Assembly (NCBI GenBank): GCA_965203355.1
Contig: OZ241889.1
Coordinates: 3,296,001 to 3,360,000, forward strand
Reading direction: 5' to 3'
Origin: Candidatus Latescibacterota bacterium
GTDB lineage: Bacteria > Latescibacterota > UBA2968 > UBA8231
Length of the DNA: 64,000 nucleotides
The notes below the pieces were generated by a model. The model made no database searches and was not told the origin of the DNA. It worked only from the letters and a program-made list of their open reading frames with translations. Position 1 is the first letter of the stretch. Every line of letters starts with the position of its first letter. The translations under genes and the position numbers were made by a program. Positions 21,615-51,307 of the stretch are shown here, in pieces.

Positions 21615-23780
21615 GTGTCCAACCTCCGCCTGCAATTTCCCGGTGCCTTGCTTAGCCTCCTGTTCGCCGCTTCCAGTGCCGACCCAGCCGACTGGCCTTC
21701 TTGGCGCGGACCAACGCAAAACGGCGTCTCCGCAGAAACCGACCTCGTCGAATCCTGGTCGCCGGTCTGGCACGCCGCATTCACCGGACGCTCGACCCCC
21801 ATCGTCCTCAACGGACGAGTATTCGTCATGGGTCGCCGCGGCGAGGGTATCGAGCACGAGGGCGTCGTCGCCGCCTTTGACGCCCAAGACGGCACCCTAC
21901 TCTGGGAGCACACCCACAACATCTTCCACACCACCATCCCCTTCAACCGCGTCGGCTGGGCCAGCCTCGCTGGCGACCCAGAGACCGGCTACATCTACGC
22001 CCATACCGTCAGCGGACTGTTCCTTTGTTTTGACCGCGATGGCGAGGTGGTCTGGTCGCGCTCGCTGACCGAGGAGTTCGGGCGCATCTCCGGCTACGGC
22101 GGCCGCGTCCACACGCCCGTCGTCGATGAAGATCTCGTCATCATCAGCTATCTCAGTTCCAACTGGGGCCATCACACCCCGGGCCGCCACCGCTACTTCG
22201 CCTTTGACAAGCGCAGCGGCGAAGTCTTCTGGATCGCCACCCCGGGCGGCCGACCGCTCGACACCACGTACTCGGTGCCGGTCGTCGCCACCATCAACGG
22301 CGTCCGCCTGCTCATTGGCGGCAACGCCGACGGCTCCATCTACGCCCTGAAAATCCGCACCGGCGAAAGCGCGTGGGGCTTCAAGCTCAGTCGGCGCGGC
22401 ATCAACGCTTCGGTCGTCGTCGCGGGCGACAAGGTGTACGCCGCCCACAGCGAGGAAAATCTCGACAACACCGCCCTCGGCCGCGTCGTGTGCATCAACG
22501 CCACCGGCCAAGGCGACGTCACCAACACCCACGAGGTCTGGCGCTACGACGGCGTTTTCGCCGGTTATAGCAGTCCAGTTGTCGGCGATGGCCGCTTGTA
22601 CATCATCGACAACTCGGCCAACATCCACGCGCTCGACGCCGCCACCGGCCAAGTCCACTGGATCCACAACATCGGCACCGTCGGCAAAGGATCGCCCGTG
22701 CTGGCCGACGGGCGGCTCTACGCGCCAGAAGTCAACGGCCGCTTCGCCATCGTCGCCCCGGGTCCCGACGCGGCCGAGACCCTGGACCTCGCCGAGATTG
22801 CCATGCCCGACGGACGCCCGGCCGAACTGTTCGGCTCGCCAGCCGTAGCGTATGGCCGCATCTACCTTTCCACCGAGGCCGGCGTTTACTGCCTCGGCGA
22901 CCCGGCCGCGCCGTTTGCGGTCGCAGCGACCGCCGCCGACTATCCACGCGAGCCAGCACCCGCAGACGCCACCCCGGCGCATCTGCAAATCACGCCCGCC
23001 GAAGTAGTAGCCCAGCCCGGCGCCAGCCTAGCGCTTCGCGCCCGAGCCTTCGACGCAAACGGGCGGCTCATCGGCCCAGTCGCAGCCGAGTGGTCGCTCG
23101 CCGGTCCGGTCGGCCAACTCGACGGCCATACGCTCGTCCTCGCGGACGCACCCGGCGGCGGCAAAATCGTCGCCCGCGCCGGCGAACTGGTCGCCGAGGC
23201 GCGCATTGCCGTGCTGCCGCCGCCGACCTACAGCGCGGACTTTGAGGAATTCGCCGTTGACGCCGCGCCAGCTTGGGTCGGCATAGGCCGCAAGTTCACG
23301 GTGCGCGAAGTGGCAGGCAACAAGGTGCTGGTCAAGCCACCCGCCGCCCGCGGCCTGCACCGCGCCAACACCTACCTCGGCGCCCCGGACATGGCCGGCT
23401 ACACCATCCAAGCCGATCTGCTCGGCACCAAGAAGCGCCGCGCTGTCCCGGATCTCGGCCTGATTGCCCAGCGCTACACTCTCGACCTGATGGGCTACCA
23501 CCAGCAGTTGCAGATCCGCACTTGGGCCGCCGAGCTGCGGATGGCCAAGACCGTGCCCTTCGCTTGGGAAACCGGCGTCTGGTACACCATGAAGATGCAG
23601 GTGGAAATCGCCGGCGATACCGCCCACATTCGCGGCAAGGTCTGGCCCCGCGACGCGCCAGAGCCAGCCGCGTGGAGTATCGAGGCGGTCGATCCCCGAC
23701 CCAACCGCAGCGGCAGCCCCGGACTCTACGGATATTCTCCCGCTGAAATCTACTACGACAACCTGAAAGTTTGGCCATGA
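21615..23780 (+). CDS. Secreted PQQ-like beta-propeller protein with C-terminal Ig-like and beta-sandwich domains
   Basis: Signal peptide, DWPSWRGP, repeated AFD..DG..LW and SP(V/A) blades. Confidence 0.8.
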   Translation: MSNLRLQFPGALLSLLFAASSADPADWPSWRGPTQNGVSAETDLVESWSPVWHAAFTGRSTPIVLNGRVFVMGRRGEGIEHEGVVAAFDAQDGTLLWEHTHNIFHTTIPFNRVGWASLAGDPETGYIYAHTVSGLFLCFDRDGEVVWSRSLTEEFGRISGYGGRVHTPVVDEDLVIISYLSSNWGHHTPGRHRYFAFDKRSGEVFWIATPGGRPLDTTYSVPVVATINGVRLLIGGNADGSIYALKIRTGESAWGFKLSRRGINASVVVAGDKVYAAHSEENLDNTALGRVVCINATGQGDVTNTHEVWRYDGVFAGYSSPVVGDGRLYIIDNSANIHALDAATGQVHWIHNIGTVGKGSPVLADGRLYAPEVNGRFAIVAPGPDAAETLDLAEIAMPDGRPAELFGSPAVAYGRIYLSTEAGVYCLGDPAAPFAVAATAADYPREPAPADATPAHLQITPAEVVAQPGASLALRARAFDANGRLIGPVAAEWSLAGPVGQLDGHTLVLADAPGGGKIVARAGELVAEARIAVLPPPTYSADFEEFAVDAAPAWVGIGRKFTVREVAGNKVLVKPPAARGLHRANTYLGAPDMAGYTIQADLLGTKKRRAVPDLGLIAQRYTLDLMGYHQQLQIRTWAAELRMAKTVPFAWETGVWYTMKMQVEIAGDTAHIRGKVWPRDAPEPAAWSIEAVDPRPNRSGSPGLYGYSPAEIYYDNLKVWP

Positions 23781-25198
23781 CGCAAACCATTTGCAGCCTC
23801 ATCCTCGCCCTCGCCGCGGCCGCCGGCGCCCAAACCGCAATGTGGGGCGGCTCGCCCGGGCGCAATCCGGTCTCGGACGAGCAAAACCTGCCCACCACTT
23901 GGGACGTCGAGACCGGCGCAAACGTCAAGTGGCGGGCCACGCTCGGCTCGCAGACCTACGCCGGGCCCCTAATCGCCGGCGACAAAATTTTCGTCGGCAC
24001 CAACAACCAAGCCGAGCGCGATCCCAGCCATAAGGGAGACCGCGGCGTAGTCATGGCCTTTTCCCTAGCAGACGGTGCTTTCCTCTGGCAAATCGCCCAC
24101 CCCAAGCTGCCGGCTGGCCGCGTCAACGACTGGCCGCAACAGGGCGTCTGCTCCACTCCTTTTGTCCACGGCGATCGCCTCTACTACGTCTCCAACCGCG
24201 CCGAAGTCGTCTGCCTCGACACCGAGGGCTTCCGCGATGGCGAGAACGACGGCCCCATCGCCGACGAAACCGCCACCGCGCCCACCAATGCGGATCTGAT
24301 CTGGAAATTCGACATGATCGCCGAGTTGGACGTCTTCCCCCACAACCTCGCCACCAGCTCGCCACTCGGCGTGGACGGTCGCCTCTTTGCCCTGACCAGC
24401 AACGGCGTGGACGAGGGCCACATCCACATCCCGGCCCCCTTTGCCCCCAGCTTCATCGCCCTCGACATGCAGACCGGCCAGCTCCTCTGGGACAGCGCCC
24501 TGCCCGGCGACCAAATTCTGCACGGCCAGTGGTCCAACCCGGCCTATGGCGAGGCCGGGGGCCGCAAGCAGGTCGTCTTCCCCGGCGGCGACGGCTGGGT
24601 CTATGCCCTCGCGCCCGACACCGGCGAGTTGATCTGGAAATTCGACTGCAACCCCAAGGATTCGGTGTGGGAATTGGGCGGGCGTGGCACCCGCAACAAC
24701 CTCGTCTCCACGCCCGTCTTTTACGACGGCAAGGTCTATATCGGCGTCGGCCAAGACCCGGAGCACGGCGAAGGCGAGGGTCACCTATGGGCCATTGACG
24801 CCAGCGGCACCGGCGACATCACCGAGACGGGCGCAATCTGGCACTTCGGCGACAAAAACTACAACCGCACCATCTCCACGGTCGCCATTGCCGACGGCCT
24901 GCTCTACGCCGCCGACCTGAGTGGCTTTGTCTATTGCCTCGACGCCAAGACCGGCACCCACCACTGGACCCACGACACCTTCGCCGCGATCTGGGGCTCG
25001 CCCTTTGTCGCCGACGGCAAGGTCTATATCGGCGACGAAGACGGCGACGTCGATGTGCTCAAGGCCGGCAAAACGCTCGCAGTACTACACGAGACGAACT
25101 TGGGCAGCGCCGTGTACACCACCCCAGTCGCCCGCGACGGCGTCTTGTACATCGCCTCGCGCAACACCCTCTTCGCCATCGCGGCGGCAAGCCAATGA
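23777..25198 (+). CDS. Secreted PQQ-like beta-propeller protein
   Basis: Signal peptide, LPTTWD..NVKW, CLDAKTG..HW, WGSPFVADGKVY; ATGA overlap with the upstream gene. Confidence 0.8.
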   Translation: MTQTICSLILALAAAAGAQTAMWGGSPGRNPVSDEQNLPTTWDVETGANVKWRATLGSQTYAGPLIAGDKIFVGTNNQAERDPSHKGDRGVVMAFSLADGAFLWQIAHPKLPAGRVNDWPQQGVCSTPFVHGDRLYYVSNRAEVVCLDTEGFRDGENDGPIADETATAPTNADLIWKFDMIAELDVFPHNLATSSPLGVDGRLFALTSNGVDEGHIHIPAPFAPSFIALDMQTGQLLWDSALPGDQILHGQWSNPAYGEAGGRKQVVFPGGDGWVYALAPDTGELIWKFDCNPKDSVWELGGRGTRNNLVSTPVFYDGKVYIGVGQDPEHGEGEGHLWAIDASGTGDITETGAIWHFGDKNYNRTISTVAIADGLLYAADLSGFVYCLDAKTGTHHWTHDTFAAIWGSPFVADGKVYIGDEDGDVDVLKAGKTLAVLHETNLGSAVYTTPVARDGVLYIASRNTLFAIAAASQ

Positions 25199-26271
25199 GC
25201 GTCTCACCCGATAAAATCGCCGCGGCCCGCCGCGACCTCGACGCGCACGTCCGCGCCATCGTCGAGTGGCACTTCAACCCCGCAACCGGCTGCCCGTTCT
25301 GGCTTGCCTACGCGCAACAACTCGATTTCGACCCGCGCGAGCAAATCCGCTCCTATGACGATTTGGCCCGGCTCGGCCACTTTGAGGACGAGTGGCTGCG
25401 CGGCGGCCCGGTGCGTCAGTGGGTGCCCAAAGCCTATGCTGACGAGCCGATTTGCGTTTTTGAGACCGGCGGCTCCACGGGCTTGCCCAAATACCGCATC
25501 AACATCCGCGACTTCCAAGCCGACTACGCGCTCTACAGCGAGAGCCTGCCCGAGGAGGGTTTTCCCCAGGGCGCCGACTGGCTGATGCTCGGGCCTTCGG
25601 GGCCCCGCCGCCTGCGCTTGGCCATCGAGTATCTCGCCCAGCTACGCGGCGGCTTGTGCTTTCTGGTAGATCTCGACCCCCGCTGGGTCAATGAACTCAT
25701 CCGCGACGGCAAGATGCGCGAGTTAGACGCCTACAAAGCCCACGTCGTCAATCAGGCGCTCAAAATCCTCAAGGCCCACGACAACGTGCAGTGCGTCTTC
25801 ACCACGCCCCGCCTCCTTGAAGCCCTCTGCGAAAAAGTCTCCCTGCCCAAGCTCGGCATTAAGGGCATCTTCTGTGGCGGCACGGAAATGAACGCCCAGT
25901 TCCATCGCTTCGCCCGCGAGGAGTTGGTGCCCGGCCTCGCCTTTGTCCCCACCTACGGCAACACCCTAATGGGCCTCGCCTGCCCTAAACCCTTTGACCC
26001 AGCCGACGAATACGCCATCGCGTATTACCCACCGCAGCCACGCGCCGTCATCGAGTTGGTCGATCCCAAAGATCCCACGCGCAAGGTCGGCTACGGCGAG
26101 ACCGGCCGCGTCATGCTCACCACCCTGACCGAGGAATTTTTCATGCCCCGCTTCCTCGAACGCGACGAAGCCGAACGCACCGCGCCGATTGAGGCGTATC
26201 CGTGGGATGGCGTTAAAAATTTGCGACTGCTGACCGAGTTGCAGGAGGCGGTGGTGGTGGGGGTGTATTGA
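25195..26271 (+). CDS. EhpF/EsmD2-like short adenylate-forming enzyme
   Basis: WHFNPATGCPFWL, FDP, ETGGSTGLPK, VDLDPRWV, GGTE, YGNT, ERD and C-terminal GVY match recalled EhpF motifs; ATGA overlap fixes the start at 25195. Confidence 0.8.
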   Translation: MSVSPDKIAAARRDLDAHVRAIVEWHFNPATGCPFWLAYAQQLDFDPREQIRSYDDLARLGHFEDEWLRGGPVRQWVPKAYADEPICVFETGGSTGLPKYRINIRDFQADYALYSESLPEEGFPQGADWLMLGPSGPRRLRLAIEYLAQLRGGLCFLVDLDPRWVNELIRDGKMRELDAYKAHVVNQALKILKAHDNVQCVFTTPRLLEALCEKVSLPKLGIKGIFCGGTEMNAQFHRFAREELVPGLAFVPTYGNTLMGLACPKPFDPADEYAIAYYPPQPRAVIELVDPKDPTRKVGYGETGRVMLTTLTEEFFMPRFLERDEAERTAPIEAYPWDGVKNLRLLTELQEAVVVGVY

Positions 26272-26328
26272 GAGAACAGCTTATCACTTATAGCTTGCAA
26301 CACTTCATCGCCAACCCAAAACCCAACC

Positions 26329-27726
26329 ATGCACCTACCCATCCTCCGCGCCGGCCAGCCCTACACCAGCCTCGACCGCCTCACCATCGCCCACATCGCC
26401 ACCGGCCAACCTGTGGCCCAAGTCAGCCAAGCCAACCGCGGCCTCATTGCCCGCGACTTAGCCGCCCAAGAGCGCAACTACCACGCCCTGCAAGCGCTCC
26501 CGGTCGCCGAACTAGTCGCCATCGGCCAACGCGCCGCCGACCTTTTCTTGCGCGCCGAGCTACCTTTAGGCGACCGCCGCCAAACCCCGGACGACTACGT
26601 CGCGCAAGTCTCGGCCACCACCGGCTTGCCGCAGTCGCTGGCCCGCGCCAACATGGACAAAATCCACCGCGTCGGCAGCGAAATGCCCGCCGTACTCAGC
26701 GGCCTGACCCGAGGCCTAGACCTGGCCACCCTCGACGACGGCCCCAGTCCGCTCCATTTCGCGCCCCATGCTCAAGCCCTCGGCTGCATCCTGCCGAGCA
26801 ACTCCCCCGGCGTCCACGCCCTGTGGCTGCCAGCCATCCCGCTCAAAATCCCGCTGGTGCTCAAGCCGGGCCGCGAAGAGCCGTGGACGCCCTACCGCAT
26901 CGCCCAAGCCCTGGCCGCAGCCGGCTGTCCACCCCAAGCCCTGAGCTACTACCCAACCGACCACGGCGGCAGCACCGAGATTCTGCTCGGCTGCGGGCGG
27001 TCGCTGCTATTCGGCGGCGGTTCTACAGTCGCCCCTTGGCGCGACGATCCCCGCATCCAACTACACGGACCAGGGCGCAGCAAGATCATCATCGGCGCGG
27101 ACCAAATCGACCGCTGGGAACACTATCTCGACTTGATGGTCGCCTCAATCGCCGCCAACGGAGGCCGCTCCTGCCTCAACGCCTCGGGCGTCTGGGTGCC
27201 CGCCCATGGCCGCGCCATTGCCGCCGCCCTCGGCGAGCGCCTGAGCCAAATCCAAGCCCGCCCCCTCGACGACCCTCAAGCCCAAATCGCCGCCTTCCCC
27301 AAGCCGGCCGTAGCGCGTCAGATCGCCGCCCTCATCGACGGCCAACTCGGCGACAAAGCGCAAGACACCGCGAGAGGACCTGCCGAGCGCGTCGCCGAGA
27401 TCGATGGCTGCACCTTCCTCAACCCGACCTTAATCCACGCCCCGGACTGGCAACATCCGCTGGCCAATACCGAATATCTCTTTCCGTTTGCCTCGGTAGT
27501 AGAAGTCCCGCAAGAAGAAGTGGTCGCACGCATCGGCCCGACGCTGGTGGCCACCGCCCTCACCGAGGACGAGCGCCTAACGCGCCAACTGCTCGCCGCC
27601 CCCCACATCGAACGCCTCAACCTCGGCCCGATCCCCACCCACGAGATCGCGTGGGATCAGCCGCACGAGGGCAACCTCTTCGACTTCCTCTACCAGCAGC
27701 GCGCCTTGCAGCGCCGGGCCGGATGA
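26329..27726 (+). CDS. ALDH-superfamily acyl reductase (EhpG-like)
   Basis: LPSNSPGVHALW, LKPGREEPWTPYR, catalytic Cys in NGGRSCLNAS, EYLFPF; LHGPGRSK in place of canonical ELGGK. Confidence 0.75.
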   Translation: MHLPILRAGQPYTSLDRLTIAHIATGQPVAQVSQANRGLIARDLAAQERNYHALQALPVAELVAIGQRAADLFLRAELPLGDRRQTPDDYVAQVSATTGLPQSLARANMDKIHRVGSEMPAVLSGLTRGLDLATLDDGPSPLHFAPHAQALGCILPSNSPGVHALWLPAIPLKIPLVLKPGREEPWTPYRIAQALAAAGCPPQALSYYPTDHGGSTEILLGCGRSLLFGGGSTVAPWRDDPRIQLHGPGRSKIIIGADQIDRWEHYLDLMVASIAANGGRSCLNASGVWVPAHGRAIAAALGERLSQIQARPLDDPQAQIAAFPKPAVARQIAALIDGQLGDKAQDTARGPAERVAEIDGCTFLNPTLIHAPDWQHPLANTEYLFPFASVVEVPQEEVVARIGPTLVATALTEDERLTRQLLAAPHIERLNLGPIPTHEIAWDQPHEGNLFDFLYQQRALQRRAG

Positions 27727-28850
27727 CCCCCTTCGACTTTGATCCATCCACCCGCGTAGTCTTTGGCGCCGGAACCCTCGGCCAGCTAGGCACCCTCGCC
27801 AGCGCGTTGGCCGGCCCGCGCATCCTGCTCGTAACCGATCCCGGCCTCGTCCAAACGGGCCTCGCCGCCCAAGCCCGTCGCGCCCTACAAAACGCCGGCC
27901 TCAAGACAACCACTTTTTCCGCCGTAGCAGAAAATCCCACAACCGACCACGTAGCCGCTGGCGCCGACCACGCCCGCACCCACGGCCCCATCGACCTCAT
28001 CGTCGCCTTGGGCGGCGGCAGCGCCATGGACTGCGCCAAGGGCATCAACTTCCTGCTGACCAACGGCGGCCCGATGCACTTCTACCAAGGCTACGGCAAA
28101 GCCACCCGACCCATGCTGCCTTCCATCGGCATCCCCACCACCGCCGGAACGGGTAGCGAGGCCCAATCCTACGCCCTGCTTACCTGCGCCAACACCGGCG
28201 CGAAAATGGCCTGCGGCGACCGCAAAGCGCGCTTCCACATCGCCATCCTCGACCCAAACGCGCTGACCAGCGTCCCCCACCGCGTCCGCGCCGATGCCGG
28301 TATCGACGCCCTCGCCCACGCGGTCGAAAGCTACGTCTGCACCTGCCGGACGCCGCTGTCCCAGATGTTCGCCCGCCAAGCCTGGCGGCTGCTCGCACCC
28401 CACTACGCAGCCGCTGTCGCCGATCCGCAAAACGCGACCGCCGCTCTGCTTTTAGGTGCTCATCTGGCTGGCATGGCCATCGAAAACTCCATGCTCGGCG
28501 CCGCTCACGCCACCGCCAATCCGCTCACCGCCCACTACGCACTCACCCACGGCCGCGCCGTAGCCCTGATGCTGCCGCACGTGATCCGGTTGAACAGCCA
28601 AGCGGTGGACGAGCTATACGGCGAACTTTGCGCCGACATCCAACTCAACGGCCGGGGCCGCGCACTCGCCGCCCACCTCGAAAAATTGTGCGCCACAGCC
28701 GGCCTACCACGCCGACTCGCCGATTGTCAGGTCGCCGAAAATGATCTGCCTACCATGGCCCGAGCAGCCGCTGGTCAGTGGACCGGGACCTTCAACCCGC
28801 TTCCCTTGCAAGAAGCCGACTTCCTGCGGCTTTACGAGGCGGCGTTTTGA
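27723..28850 (+). CDS. Iron-containing alcohol dehydrogenase
   Basis: GGGSAMDCAK, IPTTAGTGSE, DALAHAVE, AHATA, THG; ATGA overlap gives start 27723. Confidence 0.9.
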   Translation: MTPFDFDPSTRVVFGAGTLGQLGTLASALAGPRILLVTDPGLVQTGLAAQARRALQNAGLKTTTFSAVAENPTTDHVAAGADHARTHGPIDLIVALGGGSAMDCAKGINFLLTNGGPMHFYQGYGKATRPMLPSIGIPTTAGTGSEAQSYALLTCANTGAKMACGDRKARFHIAILDPNALTSVPHRVRADAGIDALAHAVESYVCTCRTPLSQMFARQAWRLLAPHYAAAVADPQNATAALLLGAHLAGMAIENSMLGAAHATANPLTAHYALTHGRAVALMLPHVIRLNSQAVDELYGELCADIQLNGRGRALAAHLEKLCATAGLPRRLADCQVAENDLPTMARAAAGQWTGTFNPLPLQEADFLRLYEAAF

Positions 28851-29139
28851 TGGACAACTTTCGACTGAAACCAAATGCGATATGTAAAATTATCCTTCAG
28901 GCGTGCGGAGAAATTGCACTTCGCTCCTTGCTTCCGCTCCCTACGCCGAGCAACAAGCGCGAATGCGTCACAAGCAAGCTATTCAGAACGGAGAACATTT
29001 CATCCGGCAATTCCAAGGTGACTTTAGTCATAATCAACGTTCTGATTTCTCACACTCGGTTAAGGCTGGTGTCTGTCACCAAATCAGCAAAATGTCACTT
29101 CTCTTTTAATTTCGTCCACAATCCCCCAACCAACAGAAT

Positions 29140-31574: not shown

Positions 31575-31587
31575 ATGGGAGGTACCC

Positions 31588-39166: not shown

Positions 39167-39168
39167 CA

Positions 39169-40473: not shown

Positions 40474-40485
40474 ACGCGGGGGATT

Positions 40486-40514
40486 TTGACAAATTTACGA
40501 TTCAATCGTAAATT
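40486..40514 (+). promoter_or_regulatory. Promoter overlapped by a perfect 23-bp palindromic operator
   Basis: TTGACA 40486-40491, 17 bp, TAAATT 40509-40514; AATTTACGATT-C-AATCGTAAATT at 40492-40514; ATG at 40521. Confidence 0.75.
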
Positions 40515-40520
40515 CGCCAC

Positions 40521-41062: not shown

Positions 41063-41109
41063 ACGGGATCACACGTTGGGGTTGGGGGTTGCGTCAACCT
41101 GCGGTCGTG

Positions 41110-43020: not shown

Positions 43021-43112
43021 GGAATCAGTCTTCTGTGTGGGATCGGCGTTGGCATCGACCGGGGCCAAAACAAGGTCGATTTTGGTGCGGCTGTCAAAAT
43101 CGCGCCGCCGCG

Positions 43113-44006: not shown

Positions 44007-44018
44007 TCCGAGTCTTTC

Positions 44019-44068
44019 ATTTATAAAACTTATGCTAAGAATAAGATATATAAATTTTCATTATGCTA
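44019..44068. promoter_or_regulatory. LysR T-N11-A boxes in the divergent lysR/purA-like promoter
   Basis: ATAA-N7-TTAT at 44050-44064; second T-N11-A at 44020-44032; TTATGCTA repeated at 44030 and 44061. Confidence 0.6.
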
Positions 44069-44126
44069 CAATTTCGCTTATCATCAGCGGTGTCAACCTA
44101 TTCACGCTTTGCAATGGAGGTGCGTT

Positions 44127-45146
44127 ATGAGCGCCATCATCGTCGTCGACGCCTTCTGGGGCGATTCGGGTAAAGGCAAGGTCGCCGCCTTCCTCGCGCA
44201 AAAACACCAAGCGGCTTACAGCGTCCGAGCGGGAGTCGGCACTAACGCTGGGCACAGCATTCTCTTTGCCGACGGCCGCGCAATCCGCACTCAGCAGTTG
44301 CCCTGCGGCTTTCTCCATCCCCGTACGCAACTGCGCGTGGGCAGCGGCGTCGCCGTTGATCCCGAGCTGTTCTTCGCCGAACTCGACGCGCTAGACCCGA
44401 GCTATGGGCTGCGCGAGCGCACCCGCGTTGATTACCGCTGCCCACTGATTCTGCCCGAGTACCGCCAACGCGAAGCGGCCGACGTCTTTCTGCAAGAACG
44501 CGGCACCACCGCCAGCGGCAGCGGTGTCGCCCACGCTGAATTTGCCCTGCGCCAAGCGCGACAAGCCCGCGACGAGCCTACCCTCGCCGATTACACCGCC
44601 GACGTGGCCCGCGAGCTCAACGAGAGCGGCCTGCGCGGTGAAACCATCGTCGTCGAGGGCAGCCAAGGCACCCACCTGTCGCTAGCCCTGAGCGACGACT
44701 ATCCCGACTGCACCGCGGACAACTGCACCACGGCCGCCTTGGCCGATGACGTCGGACTCAACTGGCGTCATATTGAAGAAGTCTACTTGGTGGTCAAAGC
44801 ACTGCCAAGCCGCGTCGGCACCGGCCCGCTCCCCCGGCAATTGACGCCGGCCGAAGAAGACCGCCGCGGCCTGGTCGAATACGGCGTGGTGACCGGGCGA
44901 CGGCGGCGCAAAGCCGCGGGCATCTCTTGGCCCCATTTGGAAACCGCCGTCCTACTCAATGGGCCCACCCAGTTGGCTCTGACCTTCTGCGACCACCTCG
45001 ACCCGGCGGTCGCCGGGGCGCGTCAGCACCGTGCCTTGACCGCGCCCGTCCGTCAGCTCATCGACGAACTGGAGACGCGATTCAACATTCCCGTATCGCT
45101 CTGCGATTGTGGGGTACACTTCGAGCATCTCATCGAGCGTGCGTGA
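44127..45146 (+). CDS. Short (339 aa) archaeal-type adenylosuccinate synthetase homologue, divergent
   Basis: SD GGAGG; WGDSGKGK, GVGTNAGH, VDYRC, EGSQG, SRVG.GP, EYGVVTGRRRR. Confidence 0.85.
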   Translation: MSAIIVVDAFWGDSGKGKVAAFLAQKHQAAYSVRAGVGTNAGHSILFADGRAIRTQQLPCGFLHPRTQLRVGSGVAVDPELFFAELDALDPSYGLRERTRVDYRCPLILPEYRQREAADVFLQERGTTASGSGVAHAEFALRQARQARDEPTLADYTADVARELNESGLRGETIVVEGSQGTHLSLALSDDYPDCTADNCTTAALADDVGLNWRHIEEVYLVVKALPSRVGTGPLPRQLTPAEEDRRGLVEYGVVTGRRRRKAAGISWPHLETAVLLNGPTQLALTFCDHLDPAVAGARQHRALTAPVRQLIDELETRFNIPVSLCDCGVHFEHLIERA

Positions 45147-45212
45147 CCTCTCGACAGCAGCGAGTCTGCTAGCCACATTATGGGCAAACGCGCAAGCGAA
45201 AGGATTACCTCC

Positions 45213-45683
45213 ATGACTTGGCTCGTCTTCGCCCTGCTCACGGTCGCTAGCTGGGGCTGCTACGGCGTCCTGCTGCACACCGGCCAGCTCGCCATGGCCG
45301 ACCCGGTACACGGCCGCTACAAAGCCTTCCTCTTTGTCGGCTTGGCCTATCTCCTCACGGCGGTTTTCGGCTCGCTGATCGTCCTCGCCTACCACGGCGC
45401 GAGCGGGCTCTATCCGGCCAAAGGCGTCTTTTGGTCCACGGCCGCTGGCATCGCCGGGGCCATCGGCGCGTTGGGCGTCCTCCTCGCCTTCGGGGCCAAG
45501 GGGACGCCAGCCGTGGTCATGTCCATCGTCTTTGCCGGTGCTCCCATCGTCAACGCGGTCGTCGCCGTGCTATTGCATCCGCCCGCTGGCGGCTGGGCTA
45601 CCGTGCGCTGGCCCTTTGTCCTCGGCATCGTCTTAGCCGCTGTGGGGGGCTGCCTAGTGACCTTCTTCCGCCCGGGCAACTGA
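45213..45683 (+). CDS. DMT/EamA-like small membrane protein
   Basis: About five TMs; WG.YG, VMSIVFAGAPIVNA. Confidence 0.6.
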   Translation: MTWLVFALLTVASWGCYGVLLHTGQLAMADPVHGRYKAFLFVGLAYLLTAVFGSLIVLAYHGASGLYPAKGVFWSTAAGIAGAIGALGVLLAFGAKGTPAVVMSIVFAGAPIVNAVVAVLLHPPAGGWATVRWPFVLGIVLAAVGGCLVTFFRPGN

Positions 45684-45684
45684 C

Positions 45685-46101
45685 GTGTCCGTCGAATTCC
45701 GCACCCGCCGCCGCATTGAGTGGGCCGATACCGATCCGGCCGGCATCGTCCACTTTGCCCGCTTCTTCGTCTTTATGGAAGCGGCCGAGCACGCCTGCTG
45801 GCGCAGCCTCGGCCTGAGCGTCCACAGCCAATGCAACGGCGACATCATTAGCTGGCCCCGGGTCGTCGCCGAATGCGAGTACTTCCGCCCGGTCTCCTTT
45901 GAAGAGGTCCTCGACATCCACGTACGCCTCGAAGAGCAGGGCGAGAAATCCCTCTGTTTTCGCTTCGACTTTCACTGCGGCGGCACGCACATAGCCCAAG
46001 GCCGACTCAAGATCGCCTGCTGCGTCTGCAATCCGGGCGAAGCCATCCGCGCCATCCCCATCCCGGACTTTATCACCGGCAAACTGGCGGCCTCCCCGTG
46101 A
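45685..46101 (+). CDS. 4HBT/YbgC-type acyl-CoA thioesterase
   Basis: WADTDPAGIVHFARFFVFME.AE hot-dog fold motif. Confidence 0.9.
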   Translation: MSVEFRTRRRIEWADTDPAGIVHFARFFVFMEAAEHACWRSLGLSVHSQCNGDIISWPRVVAECEYFRPVSFEEVLDIHVRLEEQGEKSLCFRFDFHCGGTHIAQGRLKIACCVCNPGEAIRAIPIPDFITGKLAASP

Positions 46102-46775
46102 ACGCAGCCCCGGCCCTGGTCGCCACTGGTGTCTGCAAGCACTTCGCCCGCGGCGGCCAGACCATCGAAGTGCTGCGCGGGGTCTCCCTGTGCGCCGCGG
46201 TGGGCCAATCCCTGGCACTCATCGGCCCGTCCGGCTCGGGCAAGAGCACCTTGCTGCACCTGCTCGGCACCCTCGAACCCCCAACCGCCGGCCAAATCGC
46301 CATCCGGGGCCAAGACCCGCTAGCCCTCCCGGAACCGCAACTCGCCCGCTTCCGCAACCAGCACATCGGCTTCGTTTTCCAAAACCACCACCTGCTGCCC
46401 CAGTATTCGGCCCTCGAAAACGCCCTAATCCCCACCCTCGCCTTTCCCCAAGCCGACCGCCGCGCCCGCGCCCGCGACCTTTTGCAGGCGGTCGGTTTAG
46501 CAGAACGCCTCGACCACCGGCCGGCCGAGCTTTCCGGCGGCGAGTGCCAGCGCGTGGCTGTGGCGCGGGCCTTGATCAACCAGCCCGGGCTCTTGCTCTG
46601 CGACGAACCGACCGGCAGCCTCGACCGCCAGACCGCCACCACCGTCGCGGACCTGCTCTTCGCGCTGCACCGCGCCGAGCCAGCGGCCCTCGTCATCGCA
46701 ACCCACGACCTGGAGCTAGCGGCGCGTTGCGACCGCCGCCTGCTCCTGCGCGAGGGAACGTGCGTCCCAGCCTAA
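46098..46775 (+). CDS. LolD/MacB-type ABC ATP-binding protein
   Basis: GPSGSGKST, IGFVFQ, LSGGECQRVAVARAL, CDEPTG, ATHD; GTGA overlap. Confidence 0.95.
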   Translation: MNAAPALVATGVCKHFARGGQTIEVLRGVSLCAAVGQSLALIGPSGSGKSTLLHLLGTLEPPTAGQIAIRGQDPLALPEPQLARFRNQHIGFVFQNHHLLPQYSALENALIPTLAFPQADRRARARDLLQAVGLAERLDHRPAELSGGECQRVAVARALINQPGLLLCDEPTGSLDRQTATTVADLLFALHRAEPAALVIATHDLELAARCDRRLLLREGTCVPA

Positions 46776-49700
46776 TCTACTACTGGCGGGTCCACGTAGG
46801 GCTGCTGCTGGGGACCGCGGTCGCCACAACCGCCCTGACCGGGGCCCTCCTAGTCGGCGACTCCATGCGCGGCAGTTTGCGCGACTTGGCTTTGGAGCGT
46901 CTAGGCCGCATTGACTACGCGCTACTGGCCGAGCATTTCTTCCGCAGCGACTTGACCACCGAACACGCGCCGGTCATCCTCCTCAACGGCAGTGCCCGCC
47001 ACGCCGCCACCCAAGCGCTCGCCCGTGGCGTACAAATCCAAGGCATTGACGCCCGCTTTGCCGCGCTCTTTCCCGCCAGCGACCCCACCTGGCGCGCCGC
47101 CCTCAAACCAACGCCCGAGTCGCCGTTTCCCGCCCTCGTGGTCAGTGCTTCGCTGCAACGCGCCCTCGGCCTCGCACTGGGCGACGCGGTCCTGCTCTCG
47201 CTGGAACGCCCCAGCCCAACGTACCGCGAATCCCTCTTTGGCCGCCGTGCCACCGACGATCTCGTCGCCACGCTGCGCGTGGTGCTCACCGGCGTCTTGC
47301 CCGACCAAGGGGCCGGACGCTTCGGCCTGCGACCGCACCAGCACCTGCCGCTCAACGCCTACCTCGACCTCCAAACCCTCCAGCGCGCACTCGACCAACC
47401 CGATCGCGTCAACGCCCTGCTCATCGCCGCGCCCAACAGCCAGCCTCAAGACCTGCGGCACGCGCTCGTCCAGCAGCTTACGCTCGCCGATCTGGGGCTG
47501 GACCTCGCGCTGCACGCCCATTACATCGAACTCACCAGCACCCGCTTCGTCCTCGACGACTCGACCCGCGCGGCCGCTCTGGCCAGCGCGGCCGCCCTAC
47601 AGCTCAAAACCGCGACCTTTTCGACTTATCTAGCCAACGCCCTGGCCGGCAACGGTCGCCAAGTCCCCTACTCAACCGTTACCGCCCTCGACGATCCCAC
47701 CGGCCTCTACCTCACCGACGGACAGCCCGCGCCGCCCCTCGCCCCGGACGCCCTCTACCTCGACGCTTGGACGGCCCAAGAACTGGCCGCCGCCCCCGGG
47801 GACTCCATATCGCTGACCTATTACGAGGTCGGCCCGCGCCACACCCTGCGAACCGAGCAAGCCCACTTCCGGCTCCAAGGGATTGTGCAGATGCGCGGCT
47901 TAGCTATTGACCCAACCCTCACGCCCGAATATCAAGGGTTGCAGGAAGAAGGCGACATGGCGGCTTGGGACGCGCCCTTCCCCATCGATCTGGGGCAAAT
48001 CCGCCCGCAGGACGAAGCCTACTGGGACCAGTACGGAGCCGCACCCAAAGCCTTCGTCGCCGCCCATGCGGGACAGCGCCTATGGGGCAGCCGCCACGGT
48101 GCGCTGACCGCCATCCGCTTCTATGCGGCTTCGCCCGCCCAGTACGAGCCTCTGCGCCAAGATCTGCTGGCGCGCCTGTCCCCAGCGGCACCTAATTTTT
48201 CTTTGCGTCCGGTCCGCCAAGAGGCCCGGTTAGCAGCAACCGGCGCCACGGATTTCAGCGGCCTCTTCATCGGCTTCAGCCTCTTCCTCATCGCCGCGGC
48301 CGCGCTATTAGTAGTTTTGCTGTGCAAGTTCGGCCTCGAACAACGCACGGGCGAAGCCGGGCTGCTGCTCGCCACCGGCTACGCACGCGCGGCAGTGCGC
48401 CGCCGCTTCTTGGGCGAGGGCCTGATATTAGCCGCGCTGGGCGCCCTACTCGGCCTAGCGGGTGCTCCGCTCTACGCCTATTTGATGTTGGTCGGCTTGC
48501 ACACCTGGTGGCTGGAGGCTATCGGCACGCCTTTTCTCTCTCTCCACGTTAGCGGATTGAGTTTAGGCGTGGGCTATCTAGCGACCTTGCTACTGGTCTC
48601 GCTCGCACTGTGGCGCACCGGGCAGCACTTCCAGCGGCTACCCATCCGCGCCCTACTCGCCGGCCCCCTCGACACGGCACCGCGACGGCCGCGCCGCCGC
48701 AGCACCATGCTGGCCGCGCTCGGCTTGGTCCTCGCCCTGGCCTTAAGCGCCCTCGCCCGTACGGCCGACGCCGGCCCGGCCGCCGCGCTTTTCTTCGGCA
48801 GCGGCACCGCCGCCCTGTTGGCTCTGTTGGCCCTGTTCGCGGCATGGTTGCGCCCTCGGGCATCGCGCCGCCTCCGCTCCAGTTTTGGCTTAGGCCTACT
48901 CAACAGTGCCCGCAAGCCCAGCCGCAGCACCCTCTGCACATCCCTCGTTGCGGGCGCCACCTTTGTCATCGTCGCCGCCGGAGCCCACCGACACGTCGAG
49001 TGGTCAGACGATTCGGGCACGGGCGGCTTCTCGCTCGTCGCCGAGGCCGAGATTCCCCTGCACCAAAGCCTCAACAGGGCGGACGGTCGCTTTGAATTGG
49101 GGTTGTCGGCAGGCTTGGGCACCGCGCGCTTTTTTCCCTTTCGCGTCCTGCCCGGCGACGATGTGAGCTGCCTCAACCTCTACATACCCCAAACCCCGCG
49201 CGTCCTCGGCGCCCCGGCCGAATTCATCCAGCGCGGCGGCTGGTCCTTCCGCCAGACCCTCCCCCTGACGCCGGACGAGCGCGCCAATCCCTGGCGCTTG
49301 CTCCAGCGCGATTTGGGGCCGGGCGTCGTCCCAGCCATTGGCGATTTTAATTCGGCGCAGTGGATTTTGCACAAGCGTCTAGGCGACGACATTCCCATTG
49401 CCGAGGGCTTGGCCGGGCGGTTGGTCGGGCTGTTGGACGGCAGCCTGTTCCAGAGCGAGTTGCTCATTGCCGAAGATCGCTTCGCCGCGTACTTCCCGGC
49501 CCGCGAAGGCTACGGCTACTTCCTCGTCGAAACGGAACGACCAGCCGCCATCGCCGCCGCGCTCGAAAAGGGGCTAGCAGCCTACGGTCTCGACGCCACC
49601 TTGAGCGCCGAGCGCCTCCGCGGCTACCGCGCCGTTGAAAACACGTACCTCGCGACCTTTCAGACTTTGGGCTTGCTTGGCTTGCTTTTGGGGACGCTCG

Positions 49701-50020
49701 GTTTGGGGATTCTCATGCTGCGCAACGTCCTCGAGCGCCGGGGCGAGTTGGCGGCTTTGAGTGCCTGTGGCTTTCGCCGGGCCCGCCTAGGGGCGATGCT
49801 GCTCTGCGAACACGGTTTCCTCCTGCTGGCCGGCGAAGGGATCGGCAGCGTCGCCGCCCTCATCGCCGTGGCCCCCCGCGTCTTCGACCCAACCCCCTTG
49901 CCTTGGGCTTCGCTGCTCGTTTCGCTCGGCTTGGTCTTGGCCGCCGGCCTGTTGGCGTGTGCCGCCGCCAGTCACGCGGCCCTGCGCCGCCCCCTACTCG
50001 CAGCACTCAAGGCCGAGTGA
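46760..50020 (+). CDS. Large FtsX/MacB-type ABC permease with two periplasmic domains
   Basis: GTG start after GAGGGA; YYWR, GALLVGDSMRGSL, EQR..E.GLL.A.G and ERRGELA.L.A.GF motifs. Confidence 0.85.
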   Translation: MRPSLIYYWRVHVGLLLGTAVATTALTGALLVGDSMRGSLRDLALERLGRIDYALLAEHFFRSDLTTEHAPVILLNGSARHAATQALARGVQIQGIDARFAALFPASDPTWRAALKPTPESPFPALVVSASLQRALGLALGDAVLLSLERPSPTYRESLFGRRATDDLVATLRVVLTGVLPDQGAGRFGLRPHQHLPLNAYLDLQTLQRALDQPDRVNALLIAAPNSQPQDLRHALVQQLTLADLGLDLALHAHYIELTSTRFVLDDSTRAAALASAAALQLKTATFSTYLANALAGNGRQVPYSTVTALDDPTGLYLTDGQPAPPLAPDALYLDAWTAQELAAAPGDSISLTYYEVGPRHTLRTEQAHFRLQGIVQMRGLAIDPTLTPEYQGLQEEGDMAAWDAPFPIDLGQIRPQDEAYWDQYGAAPKAFVAAHAGQRLWGSRHGALTAIRFYAASPAQYEPLRQDLLARLSPAAPNFSLRPVRQEARLAATGATDFSGLFIGFSLFLIAAAALLVVLLCKFGLEQRTGEAGLLLATGYARAAVRRRFLGEGLILAALGALLGLAGAPLYAYLMLVGLHTWWLEAIGTPFLSLHVSGLSLGVGYLATLLLVSLALWRTGQHFQRLPIRALLAGPLDTAPRRPRRRSTMLAALGLVLALALSALARTADAGPAAALFFGSGTAALLALLALFAAWLRPRASRRLRSSFGLGLLNSARKPSRSTLCTSLVAGATFVIVAAGAHRHVEWSDDSGTGGFSLVAEAEIPLHQSLNRADGRFELGLSAGLGTARFFPFRVLPGDDVSCLNLYIPQTPRVLGAPAEFIQRGGWSFRQTLPLTPDERANPWRLLQRDLGPGVVPAIGDFNSAQWILHKRLGDDIPIAEGLAGRLVGLLDGSLFQSELLIAEDRFAAYFPAREGYGYFLVETERPAAIAAALEKGLAAYGLDATLSAERLRGYRAVENTYLATFQTLGLLGLLLGTLGLGILMLRNVLERRGELAALSACGFRRARLGAMLLCEHGFLLLAGEGIGSVAALIAVAPRVFDPTPLPWASLLVSLGLVLAAGLLACAAASHAALRRPLLAALKAE

Positions 50021-50026
50021 CCAACG

Positions 50027-51307
50027 CTACAGACCGATGCAGTACAGATGCGACTCCGTCCGCAGAAAAATCCGCCCCCCGGCCAAGGCTAGCGACGACA
50101 GCGTATAGCTGCCATCAAGTTCGTTAGTCGCCAGCACCTGGTACTCGGGCCCGGCCTGTAGCACGGTCGTCACCGCATTTTCATTGACCACGTAGAGCTT
50201 GCCGTCGGCCAGCACCAGCGAGGCACTGACCGTCCCTTGGGCCGTGCGTTCCGGCCCCCACACCACCACACCCGTCTTGGCATTGAGACAGGTGACTCGC
50301 CCGCGGTCATCCACCATGTAGAAGTAGCGGCCATCAGCAACGGCCGAAGGCACGTCCGGCCCGCCCGCTCCCGTCCACTTCCACGCCAAGTGACTCTCGC
50401 TAATATCTCCGGTGCCACCGGCGCGGAACGCCAACACTGGATTGCGGCGACTGGTCGCGTACACCATGCCGGCAACCACAACCGGCGACCCGACCACCCG
50501 GTAATTCCGCTCCTTCTCCGGATTCAAACCACCCGCCCGCCAAACCTCCTCGCCGGTGGCGGGATCGTGGCCCGTGAGATAGTCGCCGCCGGAGACGACG
50601 ATTTGCGTCTGACCGTCGTGTTCGAGCACCACGGGCGTGGTATAGGCGTCCGGCGATTCGCCCACTGCGTCGGTGGGCCGTTCCCGCCGCCACGCCACTT
50701 CCCCAGTAGCCGCGTCAAAGGCAATCAGGTAGGAAGGATCGTCCGTGTTCATCCCGTGCAGGACCTCGACGAAGAGCTGGCCATCGTAGAGCAAGGGCGA
50801 AGAGGCGTAGCCCCACATCAGGCCGAAGGGCCCGTGCTCGGCCTGCAAGTCGTAGTGCCACAGTTCTCGACCTTCCATATCAAAGGCCCGGATCATCCCC
50901 GTACCCGCAACGGCCAACACGCGCTCGCCATCCGTGACCGGCGAGGGCGAAGTGTTGTTGTGCTTGCGCCAATAGGCATTGCCCTCGTCGAGCGTACGCT
51001 GCCACAACACGCGGCCATCGGCCGTTGACAAACAGCCCAAAAGCAGTTTTTCGCCGCCTTGGATCGCCTCGCCTGAATTGGGCGATGTCAAAAAGATCCG
51101 CGCGCCCCACACCACCGGCGTGCTCCCGCTCCAAGAGGGCAGTTTTCTGCTCCAGATCACGTTCTCGCTCGTGCTCCAAGTCGCCGGTAGATTCACCGCC
51201 GCGCTGACCCCGTTGTGGCTGGGGCCGCGCCACTGGGGCCAATGCTCTTCAGCATTGGCGTACCACGCGGCCAAAAGCAGCAGTGAGACGATGGTGTATT
51301 TTTTCAT
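50027..51307 (-). CDS. Secreted PQQ-like beta-propeller protein
   Basis: Signal peptide, HWPQWRGP, LPATWS..NVIW, SPSPVTDG, GYASSP. Confidence 0.8.
   Translation of the reverse strand: MKKYTIVSLLLLAAWYANAEEHWPQWRGPSHNGVSAAVNLPATWSTSENVIWSRKLPSWSGSTPVVWGARIFLTSPNSGEAIQGGEKLLLGCLSTADGRVLWQRTLDEGNAYWRKHNNTSPSPVTDGERVLAVAGTGMIRAFDMEGRELWHYDLQAEHGPFGLMWGYASSPLLYDGQLFVEVLHGMNTDDPSYLIAFDAATGEVAWRRERPTDAVGESPDAYTTPVVLEHDGQTQIVVSGGDYLTGHDPATGEEVWRAGGLNPEKERNYRVVGSPVVVAGMVYATSRRNPVLAFRAGGTGDISESHLAWKWTGAGGPDVPSAVADGRYFYMVDDRGRVTCLNAKTGVVVWGPERTAQGTVSASLVLADGKLYVVNENAVTTVLQAGPEYQVLATNELDGSYTLSSLALAGGRIFLRTESHLYCIGL

Follow-up and report, generated by a model that had tools for sequence, protein, structure and literature searches.

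A halogenase and radical SAM gene cluster with secreted PQQ-like propellers is conserved across Latescibacterota, Poribacteria and Acidobacteriota

Gene clusters that combine a flavin-dependent halogenase with an AMP-binding enzyme, termed "Halo_AMP", were recently reported from sponge microbiomes (Loureiro et al., 10.64898/2026.08.03.742642). According to the accessible part of this preprint, they originate from Acidobacteriota, Latescibacterota and Poribacteria, occur with radical S-adenosylmethionine (SAM) enzymes, glycosyltransferases, thioesterases and TonB and ABC transporters, and frequently carry unexplained PQQ-like domains. The same text calls their TonB-dependent receptors (TBDRs) "surprising" for want of metallophore features, includes no MIBiG reference in any Halo_AMP family, classes clusters of halogenase plus adenylase as biosynthetic and uncharacterised, and focuses on a P450-containing group, "CC A", with the core A, FDH (flavin-dependent halogenase), rSAM (radical SAM enzyme), P450. 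Two further bodies of work touch on the locus described here. In phenazine clusters ehpF and ehpG are adjacent, with gene sizes that match a pair in our locus (PMC11278526), and EhpF-O are outlined as turning phenazine-1,6-dicarboxylate into a hydroxymethyl-bearing antibiotic (PMC3175449); PQQ-repeat proteins of Poribacteria are listed among secreted eukaryote-like proteins in the available part of Kamke 2014. Here we describe a gene cluster at positions 21615 to 51307 of a 64,000-nucleotide stretch of DNA from a Candidatus Latescibacterota bacterium (assembly GCA_965203355.1, contig OZ241889.1, positions 3,296,001 to 3,360,000 of the forward strand), the whole of which we call the window.

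The cluster is a real, strongly conserved system and a variant of this recently noticed, uncharacterised class: with a halogenase and AMP-binding enzymes in one neighbourhood, the window falls under the Halo_AMP definition. Our favoured reading, offered tentatively and at somewhat less than an even chance, is that its roughly 20 genes, kept by sponge-associated Latescibacterota, Poribacteria and Acidobacteriota, make a halogenated, C-methylated small aromatic compound and traffic it through the envelope. The initial annotation, made from the sequence alone, had called the pathway a candidate undescribed one. That stands in so far as the accessible preprint text gives no product, but not for the class, since the preprint already reports such clusters; the exact architecture may also already be shown there, outside the accessible part. 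A literature search returned no paper besides this 2026 preprint that joins these phyla with a halogenase, radical SAM or PQQ. To our knowledge, what is new is the EhpF-type assignment, the unity of the two gene blocks, the distribution over nearly all Poribacteria and over half of Latescibacterota species genomes, and the co-retention of one propeller, P2. The genes of the cluster are as follows.

21615–23780 (+): P1, secreted propeller of the 8-bladed PQQ_2 type (PF13360, E 1.8e-40)
23777–25198 (+): P2, the most conserved propeller (PF13360, E 9e-28)
25195–26271 (+): EhpF-type short ANL adenylating enzyme (EhpF 3l2k/3hgu, E 1.8e-43, full length)
26329–27726 (+): aldehyde dehydrogenase (ALDH)-family reductase, EhpG-like partner (PF00171, E 5e-15)
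27723–28850 (+): group III iron alcohol dehydrogenase (Fe-ADH; PF00465, PF25137)
29140–30228 (+): P3, compact 8-bladed BamB/YxaL-like propeller (PF13570, 196.5 bits, above cut-off)
30225–31574 (+): HemN-like, class-C-type rSAM (PF04055, E 3e-21; PF06969, E 2.5e-9)
31588–32832 (+): P4, secreted propeller (PF13360, E 2.4e-32)
32829–34964 (+): TBDR of the siderophore-receptor type (TIGR01783, 248.3 bits against a cut-off of 223.5)
34961–36238 (+): PaaK-type aryl/arylacetate-CoA ligase (PF14535; PDB PaaK 4r1l, E 3.9e-56)
36235–37491 (+): flavin-dependent halogenase (PDB halogenases, E 7e-61 to 1e-45)
37488–37715 (+): DUF3311 small membrane partner of the symporter (PF11755, E 1.1e-7)
37712–39166 (+): sodium:solute symporter (SSS; PF00474, E 4.6e-42; 12 hydrophobic segments)
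39169–40473 (+): GT4 glycosyltransferase (PF00534, PF13439)
45180–45683 (+): half-size EamA/DMT-like membrane protein (5 hydrophobic segments)
45685–46101 (+): 4HBT (hotdog) acyl/aryl-CoA thioesterase (TE; PF03061, PF13279)
46098–46775 (+): ABC ATPase, putatively of the LolD/MacB/YbbA type (PF00005)
~46760–50020 (+): duplicated FtsX-type permease (PF02687, two stretches)
50027–51307 (−): P5, secreted propeller (PF13360, E 6.2e-40), convergent in the window

All 14 co-directional genes that the initial annotation placed at 21615–40473 are present with the domains it named (Pfam, NCBIfam and refined open reading frames, ORFs), and the second block (45180–50020) and the convergent propeller (50027–51307) were confirmed as well. 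Its remark that PKS, NRPS, terpene, phz and pqq genes are missing also held, as no such domain was found in any ORF scanned. Overlaps of 4 nt between stop and start, which it had also noticed, join 9 of the 13 junctions of the first block (seven ATGA, two GTGA); the remaining four leave 57, 289, 13 and 2 bp between the genes. Signal peptides on all five propellers agree with our own reading of their N-termini by eye. The single sigma70-like promoter assumed upstream was not borne out: a consensus scan gave no site in 21481–21614, and 3 sites overall against 3.1 expected. Two entries of the mechanical ORF list each cover two genes, ORF 26268–28850 comprising the ALDH-family gene (26329–27726) and Fe-ADH (27723–28850), and ORF 46190–50020 comprising the ABC ATPase (46098–46775) and the FtsX permease from ~46760. 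The GT4 start is the ATG at 39169, outside the SSS gene.

The blocks 21615–40473 and 45180–50020 form one system, split in the window by an insertion, because some relatives run GT4 straight into EamA-TE-ABC-FtsX. In G004 and G005, the GT4 gene abuts the EamA gene and GT4-EamA-TE-ABC-FtsX is contiguous. The insertion is common to the window and its closest relative, G001 (L087), only, and is not in G004 or G005. It is made up as follows.

40706–45146 (no strand): lineage-specific insertion splitting the cluster, four genes
40706–41062 (+): DUF4143 fragment
41110–43020 (−): Ig-like secreted protein with a T9SS (type IX secretion system) tail
43113–44006 (−): LysR regulator
44124–45146 (+): PurA-family paralogue

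The secreted protein passes the model for T9SS-type sorting domains at the C-terminus (TIGR04183, 34.2 bits; cut-off 23) and has a weak, sub-threshold match to ATLF-like metalloproteases; together with the neighbouring truncated DUF4143 ATPase remnant it looks like an insertion scar. The PurA-family paralogue is short, stands divergent from the LysR gene and immediately precedes EamA-TE-ABC-FtsX. With the archaeal-type model it reaches 294 bits, below cut-off, and with PurZ 116 bits. G001 has a canonical purA elsewhere (518 bits) in addition to this paralogue below cut-off, and the paralogue is present in the window's lineage only, where it could add an Asp-ligation-type step.

A pattern scan for the rSAM over one genome per GTDB species matched 116 stretches, 95 of which encode a relative. 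The best 80 were kept and compared with all window proteins by tblastn, with counts bounded by 10-kb flanks and contig ends. The closest relatives are Latescibacterota metagenome-assembled genomes (MAGs), not the Planctomycetota-like genomes that the initial annotation had in mind. One of these MAGs (L001) has all 14 genes at 87–94% identity and also matches TrkH, encoded in the flank of the window, at 94%. The window's gene order recurs in 25 loci of a first Latescibacterota type, and Poribacteria and a second Latescibacterota type keep the same order at 50–75% identity. In the second type (L050, L053, L064) it runs P5(−) P1 P2 EhpF-like ALDH Fe-ADH P3 rSAM P4 PaaK-like halogenase ... DUF3311 SSS, and continues contiguously with GT4-EamA-like-TE-ABC-FtsX. 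The eight Poribacteria loci run P1-P2-EhpF-like-ALDH-FeADH-P3-rSAM-...-P4-Kelch-HAD-PaaK-like-GSDH-halogenase, where the extra genes lie within the flank in 7/8 (Kelch), 7/8 (HAD) and 3/8 (GSDH) loci. In one of them (L025, 11351–19017), DUF488 and DuOB-domain proteins are encoded along with the Kelch propeller, the HAD hydrolase and the GSDH-family protein, a member of the PQQ-dependent sugar dehydrogenases' family.

The 32 acidobacterial loci (Thermoanaerobaculia, Holophagales, Ca. Multivorans) share the order P2-P2'-FeADH-P3-rSAM-[TBDR, minus strand]-halogenase-DUF3311-SSS-GT4-ABC-FtsX. Within 10 kb of the rSAM, P3 is found in all 32, P2 and Fe-ADH in 31 each, the TBDR in 30, the halogenase in 28, SSS and GT4 in 27 each, the ABC ATPase in 22 and the FtsX permease, which directly follows GT4-ABC, in 17. 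Six Vicinamibacteria loci have only P450-P450-rSAM-halogenase-AMP-binding ligase; in one (L042, 17504–19247), genes of the steroid 5-alpha-reductase and 3-beta-HSD/epimerase families (HSD, hydroxysteroid dehydrogenase) lie ~5 kb from this core. Chance falls far short of explaining the arrangement, because its order is preserved between phyla. Cluster proteins are 46–75% identical across phyla, against 35–45% for TrkH as the one baseline gene. The initial annotation had named a lack of co-conservation in other genomes as one result that would overturn it; instead, the order is common to at least three phyla, and the genes are retained together at the genome level even where the locus is split.

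This retention was seen for the rSAM, halogenase, EhpF-like protein, ALDH and P2. Of 167 Latescibacterota species genomes, 96 have a single copy of the rSAM orthologue (E <=1e-100, 59–91% identity), and of 176 Poribacteria species genomes, 156 carry it. P2 orthologues (E <=1e-120) are likewise found in 96 of the 167 Latescibacterota genomes: 94 have both genes, 2 have the rSAM only, 2 have P2 only and 69 have neither. P2 and the rSAM are thus co-retained without linkage, because they lie more than 1 Mb apart in several complete genomes (e.g. G151, G141, G150, G112 and G062). We read such presence profiles as co-retention and not as independent events, since genome relatedness inflates these counts. 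Acidobacterial genomes whose cluster is without the EhpF-like and ALDH genes have the EhpF-like gene at a distant second locus (5/5, 60–62% identity), with an ALDH beside it in 3/3 regions fetched (46–47%); one PaaK-like gene, a candidate orthologue at 48–51% identity, is present in 4 of the 5. Vicinamibacteria with the P450-rSAM-halogenase-ligase locus have one P2 orthologue elsewhere (3/3, 55–56%). A maximum-likelihood tree of 78 rSAM sequences, quick and unrooted and with unreliable submitter taxon labels, placed the Acidobacteriota, Poribacteria and Latescibacterota labels in two clades each, which suggests lateral spread of the rSAM among co-resident symbionts. In public sequencing data, an 8.3-kb stretch shared 37% of its sampled words with "sponge metagenome" runs of one study, and no RNA run was listed among the runs matching it.

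By every sequence criterion tested, the flavoenzyme is a flavin-dependent halogenase. The marks of this family are GxGxxG, a catalytic Lys, WxWxIP and FxxPxxSxG, and the window protein has GGGPAG at 8, K69, WFWYIP at 214 and FLDPMYSSG at 298. K69, W214, W216, I218, P219, F298, D300, P301, Y303, S304 and G306 are invariant in 57/57 orthologues, and the GxGxxG glycines in all 51 rows covering that motif. Its PDB matches are 8zop, ChlB4, 5buk, PltA, 3e1t, CmlS and 5bva. The maturase models QhpG (E 2.8e-42), LodB and GoxB match as well, all below cut-off. A 4-nt overlap (GTGA) joins the halogenase gene to that of the PaaK-like ligase; the EhpF-like gene is found 10 kb further upstream.

The rSAM is an enzyme of the class C (HemN-like) radical SAM type, with the CxxxCxxC and GGGTP motifs and the HemN_C domain, and a putative methyltransferase. 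PDB comparison gave HemN 1olt (E 1.6e-37) and NocN (E 1.8e-27). The three cysteines (C69, C73, C76) are invariant in 78/78 sequences, as are G120-G122 and T123 of the GGGTP motif, with P124 in 77/78. The fourth Cys of HemN is replaced by Phe in all 78 (C-Y-F in the window against C-G-C in HemN), so a coproporphyrinogen oxidase is unlikely; loss of this residue goes with class C methyltransferases and HemW. MenK/MqnK are also counted among the class C (HemN-like) methyltransferases. We rejected identity with HemN itself (TIGR00538, 201.1 bits against 324.95, with the fourth Cys as Phe) and with ChuW/HutW (TIGR04107, 200.3 against 400); the protein is below the curated NCBIfam cut-offs for hemN, HutW and HemW.

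The EhpF-like and ALDH proteins are predicted to form an aryl-carboxylate reductase pair, the former being a single-domain enzyme of ~360 amino acids (aa) with the ALDH gene adjacent, 57 bp downstream. The adenylating enzyme aligns with EhpF 3l2k/3hgu over residues 9–358 (14–366 of EhpF). In RefSeq, plasmid-borne homologues carry the names "arylcarboxylate reductase" or "phenazine biosynthesis protein"; because identity to these is only 37–38%, the substrate probably differs from that of EhpF. For the ALDH, the best homologue on a plasmid (29% identity, 99% coverage) belongs to a phenazine-type cluster of Streptomyces. Plasmids with EhpF-like homologues and plasmids with ALDH homologues give coinciding counts by organism. 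The Streptomyces "hypothetical protein" adjoining this ALDH was not EhpF-like on comparison; the EhpF-like gene of that cluster is probably the nearby one annotated "phenazine biosynthesis protein". A search for PhzA/B (PF03284) gave 0/5 in related genomes and also 0/14 in control genomes, and is hence uninformative. Fe-ADH matches methanol, 1,3-propanediol and lactaldehyde dehydrogenases in the PDB (E 6e-57 to 1e-46).

The second adenylating enzyme is a family-level relative of phenylacetate-CoA ligase; PaaK proper was rejected (TIGR02155, 230.1 bits against 646.3; NF041878, 261.5 against 700), and the protein falls below the NCBIfam cut-offs for PaaK, FlxY and BagE. The 4HBT thioesterase scores 63 bits with YbgC/FadM (TIGR00051) against a cut-off of 68.7, and the nearest PDB sequences of GT4 are MshA, a sucrose-phosphate-synthase-like protein and Alr3699.

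Among the propellers, P2 has 55–95% identity across phyla and an unusually long list of invariant polar residues. Its AlphaFold2 (AF2) model (pLDDT 82) is 8-bladed, with BamB as the top Foldseek match and PQQ alcohol dehydrogenases only from rank 25 (TMq 0.53–0.61); ESM Atlas returned PQQ_2/PQQ clusters only. The AF2 model of P3 (pLDDT 94.4) is also 8-bladed, with the designed Cake8, BamB, tetrathionate hydrolase and YxaL on top and no PQQ dehydrogenase among the best 50 Foldseek matches listed. P1 orthologues in related loci are 48–92% identical, and the ~290-aa C-terminal extension of P1 (292 aa searched) matched 0 Pfam families. P1, P4 and P5 share W-P-x-W-R-G-P right after the signal peptide. 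A P5 orthologue adjoins P1 in L050/L091 (63–68% identity), is 93% identical in G001 and lies divergent upstream of P1 in G004. P4 is arrayed in Latescibacterota loci L002–L023, with up to four diverging matches per locus, and single in the window and L001. The arrayed copies are 72%, 55–59% and 50–55% identical to the window's P4, and these arrays are a case of rapid paralogue turnover adjoining the TonB receptor. Identity of any of the five propellers with a quinoprotein (TIGR03075/TIGR03074, 33–68 bits against 480) or BamB (TIGR03300, 56–139 bits against 285; a fold-level likeness, with five paralogues in one locus) was rejected. With both sets of models far below cut-off, "PQQ-like" is a fold label only. 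PqqC (TIGR02111) was found in 0/5 related genomes, an uninformative result given 0/14 in the control search.

The window's TBDR has both plug (PF07715) and barrel (PF00593) and belongs to TIGR01783, which is also the best model, below cut-off, for the acidobacterial TBDRs of L041 (222.4 bits) and L056 (156.7). The receptor lies within the cluster in 20/25 Latescibacterota loci. In 30/32 acidobacterial loci, a different, minus-strand TBDR stands between rSAM and halogenase; within 10 kb, 0/8 Poribacteria loci have one. A 1399-aa ORF in L056 (9787–13986) matched 0 Pfam families and was discarded as a spurious frame in high-GC sequence, where the minus-strand TBDR is the true gene. SSS is 63–70% identical across phyla. 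The EamA-like protein has 167 aa, and its nearest ESM Atlas clusters are "putative EamA domain-containing protein" (score 0.97). The ABC ATPase scores 242.9 bits with LolD (cut-off 307.75), 218.4 with YbbA and 179.5 with MacB, all below cut-offs. The permease has ~10 hydrophobic segments and two large periplasmic loops, which would suit the MacB/YbbP type; no adaptor or outer-membrane partner gene for the ABC-FtsX pair was seen.

From these assignments we infer the substrate, step order, product, transporter directions and propeller role as follows. The PaaK-type ligase would make the CoA thioester of an aromatic or arylacetic acid, for whose import the TonB receptor and the DUF3311/SSS symporter are candidates. 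On the activated form, the halogenase would place Br or Cl and the HemN-like class-C rSAM would methylate a ring carbon. The 4HBT thioesterase would then free the acid, the EhpF-type adenylase and ALDH would reduce the carboxylate to an aldehyde, and Fe-ADH the aldehyde to an alcohol. GT4 may glycosylate the product, and the EamA-like protein and the MacB/YbbP-type ABC-FtsX pump could carry it out of the cytoplasm and periplasm. The secreted propellers, P2 above all, might act on it or be its binding partners, either in the periplasm or at the cell surface, and the TonB receptor would retake the product or its complex. The initial annotation had likewise proposed tailoring of an aromatic acid; the EhpF-type pair, the full-motif halogenase, the class-C-type rSAM, the 4HBT protein and GT4 all fit such chemistry, while the substrate and product it named are conjectural.

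Several observations weigh against this route. The cluster has no carrier protein, although the nearest halogenases are carrier-dependent. Presence as a single-copy trait in 89% of one phylum is unusual for a secondary metabolite and fits core physiology better. The importer-type parts (siderophore-type TBDR, SSS) exceed the needs of a simple export pathway. The step order is not fixed, because the acidobacterial and Poribacteria versions are without some of the genes locally. The modelled propeller folds give no catalytic clue.

PQQ with the quinoproteins, and haem d1 with the NirS/NirF/NirN propellers, are cases of a cofactor operon beside periplasmic 8-bladed propellers. A comparable system, in which the enzymes tailor a small aromatic molecule for the periplasmic propellers, P2 first, to hold as their prosthetic group or obligate ligand, would suit the near-perfect co-occurrence of P2 and rSAM even when unlinked (94 genomes with both, 4 discordant, 69 with neither) and the retention of P2 in 3/3 Vicinamibacteria in which the other propellers of the block are missing beside the rSAM. 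The trait is also single-copy and lineage-wide, P2 has invariant polar residues and 55–73% cross-phylum identity, and 3/8 Poribacteria loci have a gene of the PQQ-dependent GSDH family (PF07995, E 2.9e-90) within the 10-kb flank. However, the P2 and P3 models are closest to the cofactor-less BamB and YxaL, all quinoprotein NCBIfam models are far below cut-off, and propeller copy number shifts by tandem duplication, which is more typical of binding proteins; we consider such a cofactor system unlikely. A further proposal, that this ligand is a halogenated, methylated, reduced and glycosylated aromatic acid exported by EamA/ABC-FtsX for a dedicated propeller family (P2 and its paralogues), and that symbiosis drove the passage of the system between unrelated phyla of sponge symbionts, is doubtful to a similar degree. 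If true, the "PQQ-like" proteins of sponge symbionts, filed as eukaryote-like repeats, would gain an enzymatic or sensing function. A metallophore cycle, with an aryl chelator matured by the propellers, secreted by the MacB-type pump and recaptured with its metal by the TonB receptor and symporter, would follow the logic of pyoverdine systems, which have periplasmic maturation, MacB-type export by PvdRT and a TonB receptor. Biosynthesis, exporter and receptor in one cluster are the classical siderophore layout; the window TBDR passes TIGR01783, L041 and L056 share the best model, and a TBDR is kept in 20/25 Latescibacterota and 30/32 acidobacterial loci. Yet domain scans gave no catechol, hydroxamate or NIS (NRPS-independent siderophore) genes, the Poribacteria count within 10 kb is 0/8, and we know of no pattern in which siderophores cross the inner membrane by an SSS-type importer. 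With metallophore features found wanting in the accessible preprint text too, where the TBDRs appeared "surprising", we hold this cycle to be improbable.

The same parts could instead serve to take up an aromatic acid from the host or its diet and convert it, for salvage, detoxification or catabolism, in place of de novo synthesis for export. An outer-membrane receptor, a symporter and binding-type periplasmic propellers are at hand, CoA ligase plus 4HBT mirrors aryl-CoA catabolism as in the 4-chlorobenzoate pathway, domain scans found no gene in the cluster that makes an aromatic precursor, and the sponge habitat, to which the 37% of sampled words in "sponge metagenome" runs points, is rich in aromatic metabolites. 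Set against this are the intact-motif halogenases, the C-methylating-type rSAM, GT4 and the predicted MacB-type exporter, which are anabolic or tailoring functions, and domain scans that gave no ring-cleavage, beta-oxidation or dehalogenase genes; conversion of this kind seems to us quite unlikely. Modification of a protein or peptide is more improbable by far. Here the halogenase-like flavoenzyme and rSAM would act before export on a Trp/Cys peptide or on the N-terminal W-x-x-W-R-G-P of the propellers, much as QhpG/QhpD/QhpF modify quinohemoprotein amine dehydrogenase before its export. The sub-cut-off matches to QhpG, LodB and GoxB, the likeness to the qhp operon in having an rSAM, a flavoenzyme, an ABC exporter and a propeller together, and the W-P-x-W-R-G-P common to P1, P4 and P5 speak for it, but the flavoenzyme scores much higher on true halogenases and the rSAM is HemN-like, not SPASM-type. 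Nor is there a fitting precursor-peptide ORF, as 9/13 junctions overlap and the sole large gap is without a conserved ORF, and two adenylating enzymes, a thioesterase and an alcohol dehydrogenase argue for a small acid. Finally, a chance neighbourhood of unrelated operons might be suspected from the heterogeneous functions and from the insertion and the low-GC mobile and restriction islands around the cluster; it is already contradicted by gene order kept across phyla and co-retention of unlinked genes, and we give it almost no credence. Synthesis and trafficking of a halogenated, C-methylated aromatic is the reading that we prefer, on the tentative terms given above.

The largest gap of the first block is an additional feature.

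28851–29139 (no strand): intergenic gap of 289 bp, 45% GC, between Fe-ADH and P3

This gap is a possible internal promoter or 5′ leader, and its last ~100 nt are about 80% conserved among Latescibacterota loci. A small conserved ORF was sought in it, and only this nucleotide-level conservation and a dispersed repeat were found. The repeat, a ~60-nt segment (28989–29052), recurs elsewhere in Latescibacterota loci L003, L004, L007, L010 and L011 at 87–92% identity, as would a dispersed element of the REP/MITE kind. Over 15000–55000, Rfam gave 0 matches at E up to 0.1; a tRNA scan gave 0.

GC content is 0.62–0.68 inside the cluster and lower in the flanks (0.42–0.55 at 16001–22000, 0.50–0.59 at 50001–54000), which bracket it with restriction-modification and mobile genes. 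On the left these are a TaqI_C-like ORF (16915–18033), an IS4/5 transposase (18253–18873) and an Eco57I-type methylase (18950–21481); on the right, an MTaX1/HNH protein (51475–52476) and an N6/N4 DNA methylase (52483–53481). Further out, window positions 1–13490 form a neighbourhood of sulfatase, sulfotransferase, arylsulfotransferase and GH20-like genes, a content in line with the use of sulfated glycans that is a frequent theme in work on sponge symbionts. Large membrane proteins with DUF6785/DUF6784 are encoded twice, at 9495–11636 (−; E 1e-106) and 58358–60298 (+; E 1e-121), one adjoining the sulfatases and the other an SBP_bac_5 binding protein.

The bacterial origin of the small brominated aromatics of sponges is a long-standing question, for which the cluster offers a concrete and widespread target: the halogenase-centred set is not strain-specific and is also found in many sponge Acidobacteriota. 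Co-retention ties a large orphan family of secreted "PQQ-like" propellers to defined enzymes, as a first testable lead on their ligands or function. If the product were a cofactor or metal-binding compound common to the main symbiont phyla, the system would be a core sponge-symbiosis trait and not one more antibiotic.

Compared with known systems, the locus combines parts of several. The flavoenzyme keeps GxGxxG, the catalytic Lys, WxWxIP and FxxPxxSxG, like the pyrrole/phenol-type halogenases PltA, Bmp2/Mpy16, ChlB4, CndH and CmlS. PltA, Bmp2, Mpy16 and ChlB4 act on substrates tethered to a carrier protein, whereas our cluster is without a carrier protein gene. The rSAM has the radical SAM core plus HemN_C domain of the class C methyltransferases (NosN/NocN, ChuW/HutW) and of HemN, but it lies under every curated cut-off. 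EhpF/EhpG of the D-alanylgriseoluteic acid pathway in Pantoea agglomerans are likewise a ~360-aa short ANL enzyme followed by a ~460-aa ALDH-family protein; they are said to reduce one carboxylate of phenazine-1,6-dicarboxylate to the aldehyde, in work attributed to Giddens in 2002 and Bera in 2010, whereas the window is without phz genes. With pyoverdine logistics the locus shares a candidate MacB/YbbA-type ABC-FtsX pump, a siderophore-type TBDR and secreted accessory proteins in one cluster, but it differs in having no NRPS, no recognisable chelating chemistry and propellers in place of the Pvd maturation enzymes. Like the haem d1 (nir) and PQQ systems, it sets cytoplasmic tailoring, including a radical SAM enzyme, beside paralogous periplasmic 8-bladed propellers as a lineage-wide, single-copy trait; unlike them, it has no likeness to NirS/F/N or quinoproteins beyond the generic propeller, and no tetrapyrrole or pqq genes. 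The P450-P450-rSAM-halogenase-ligase loci of Vicinamibacteria match the core of CC A as given in the accessible preprint text, from which our analysis of the window differs by the EhpF-type reductase assignment, the near-universality in Poribacteria and the co-retention of an unlinked propeller.

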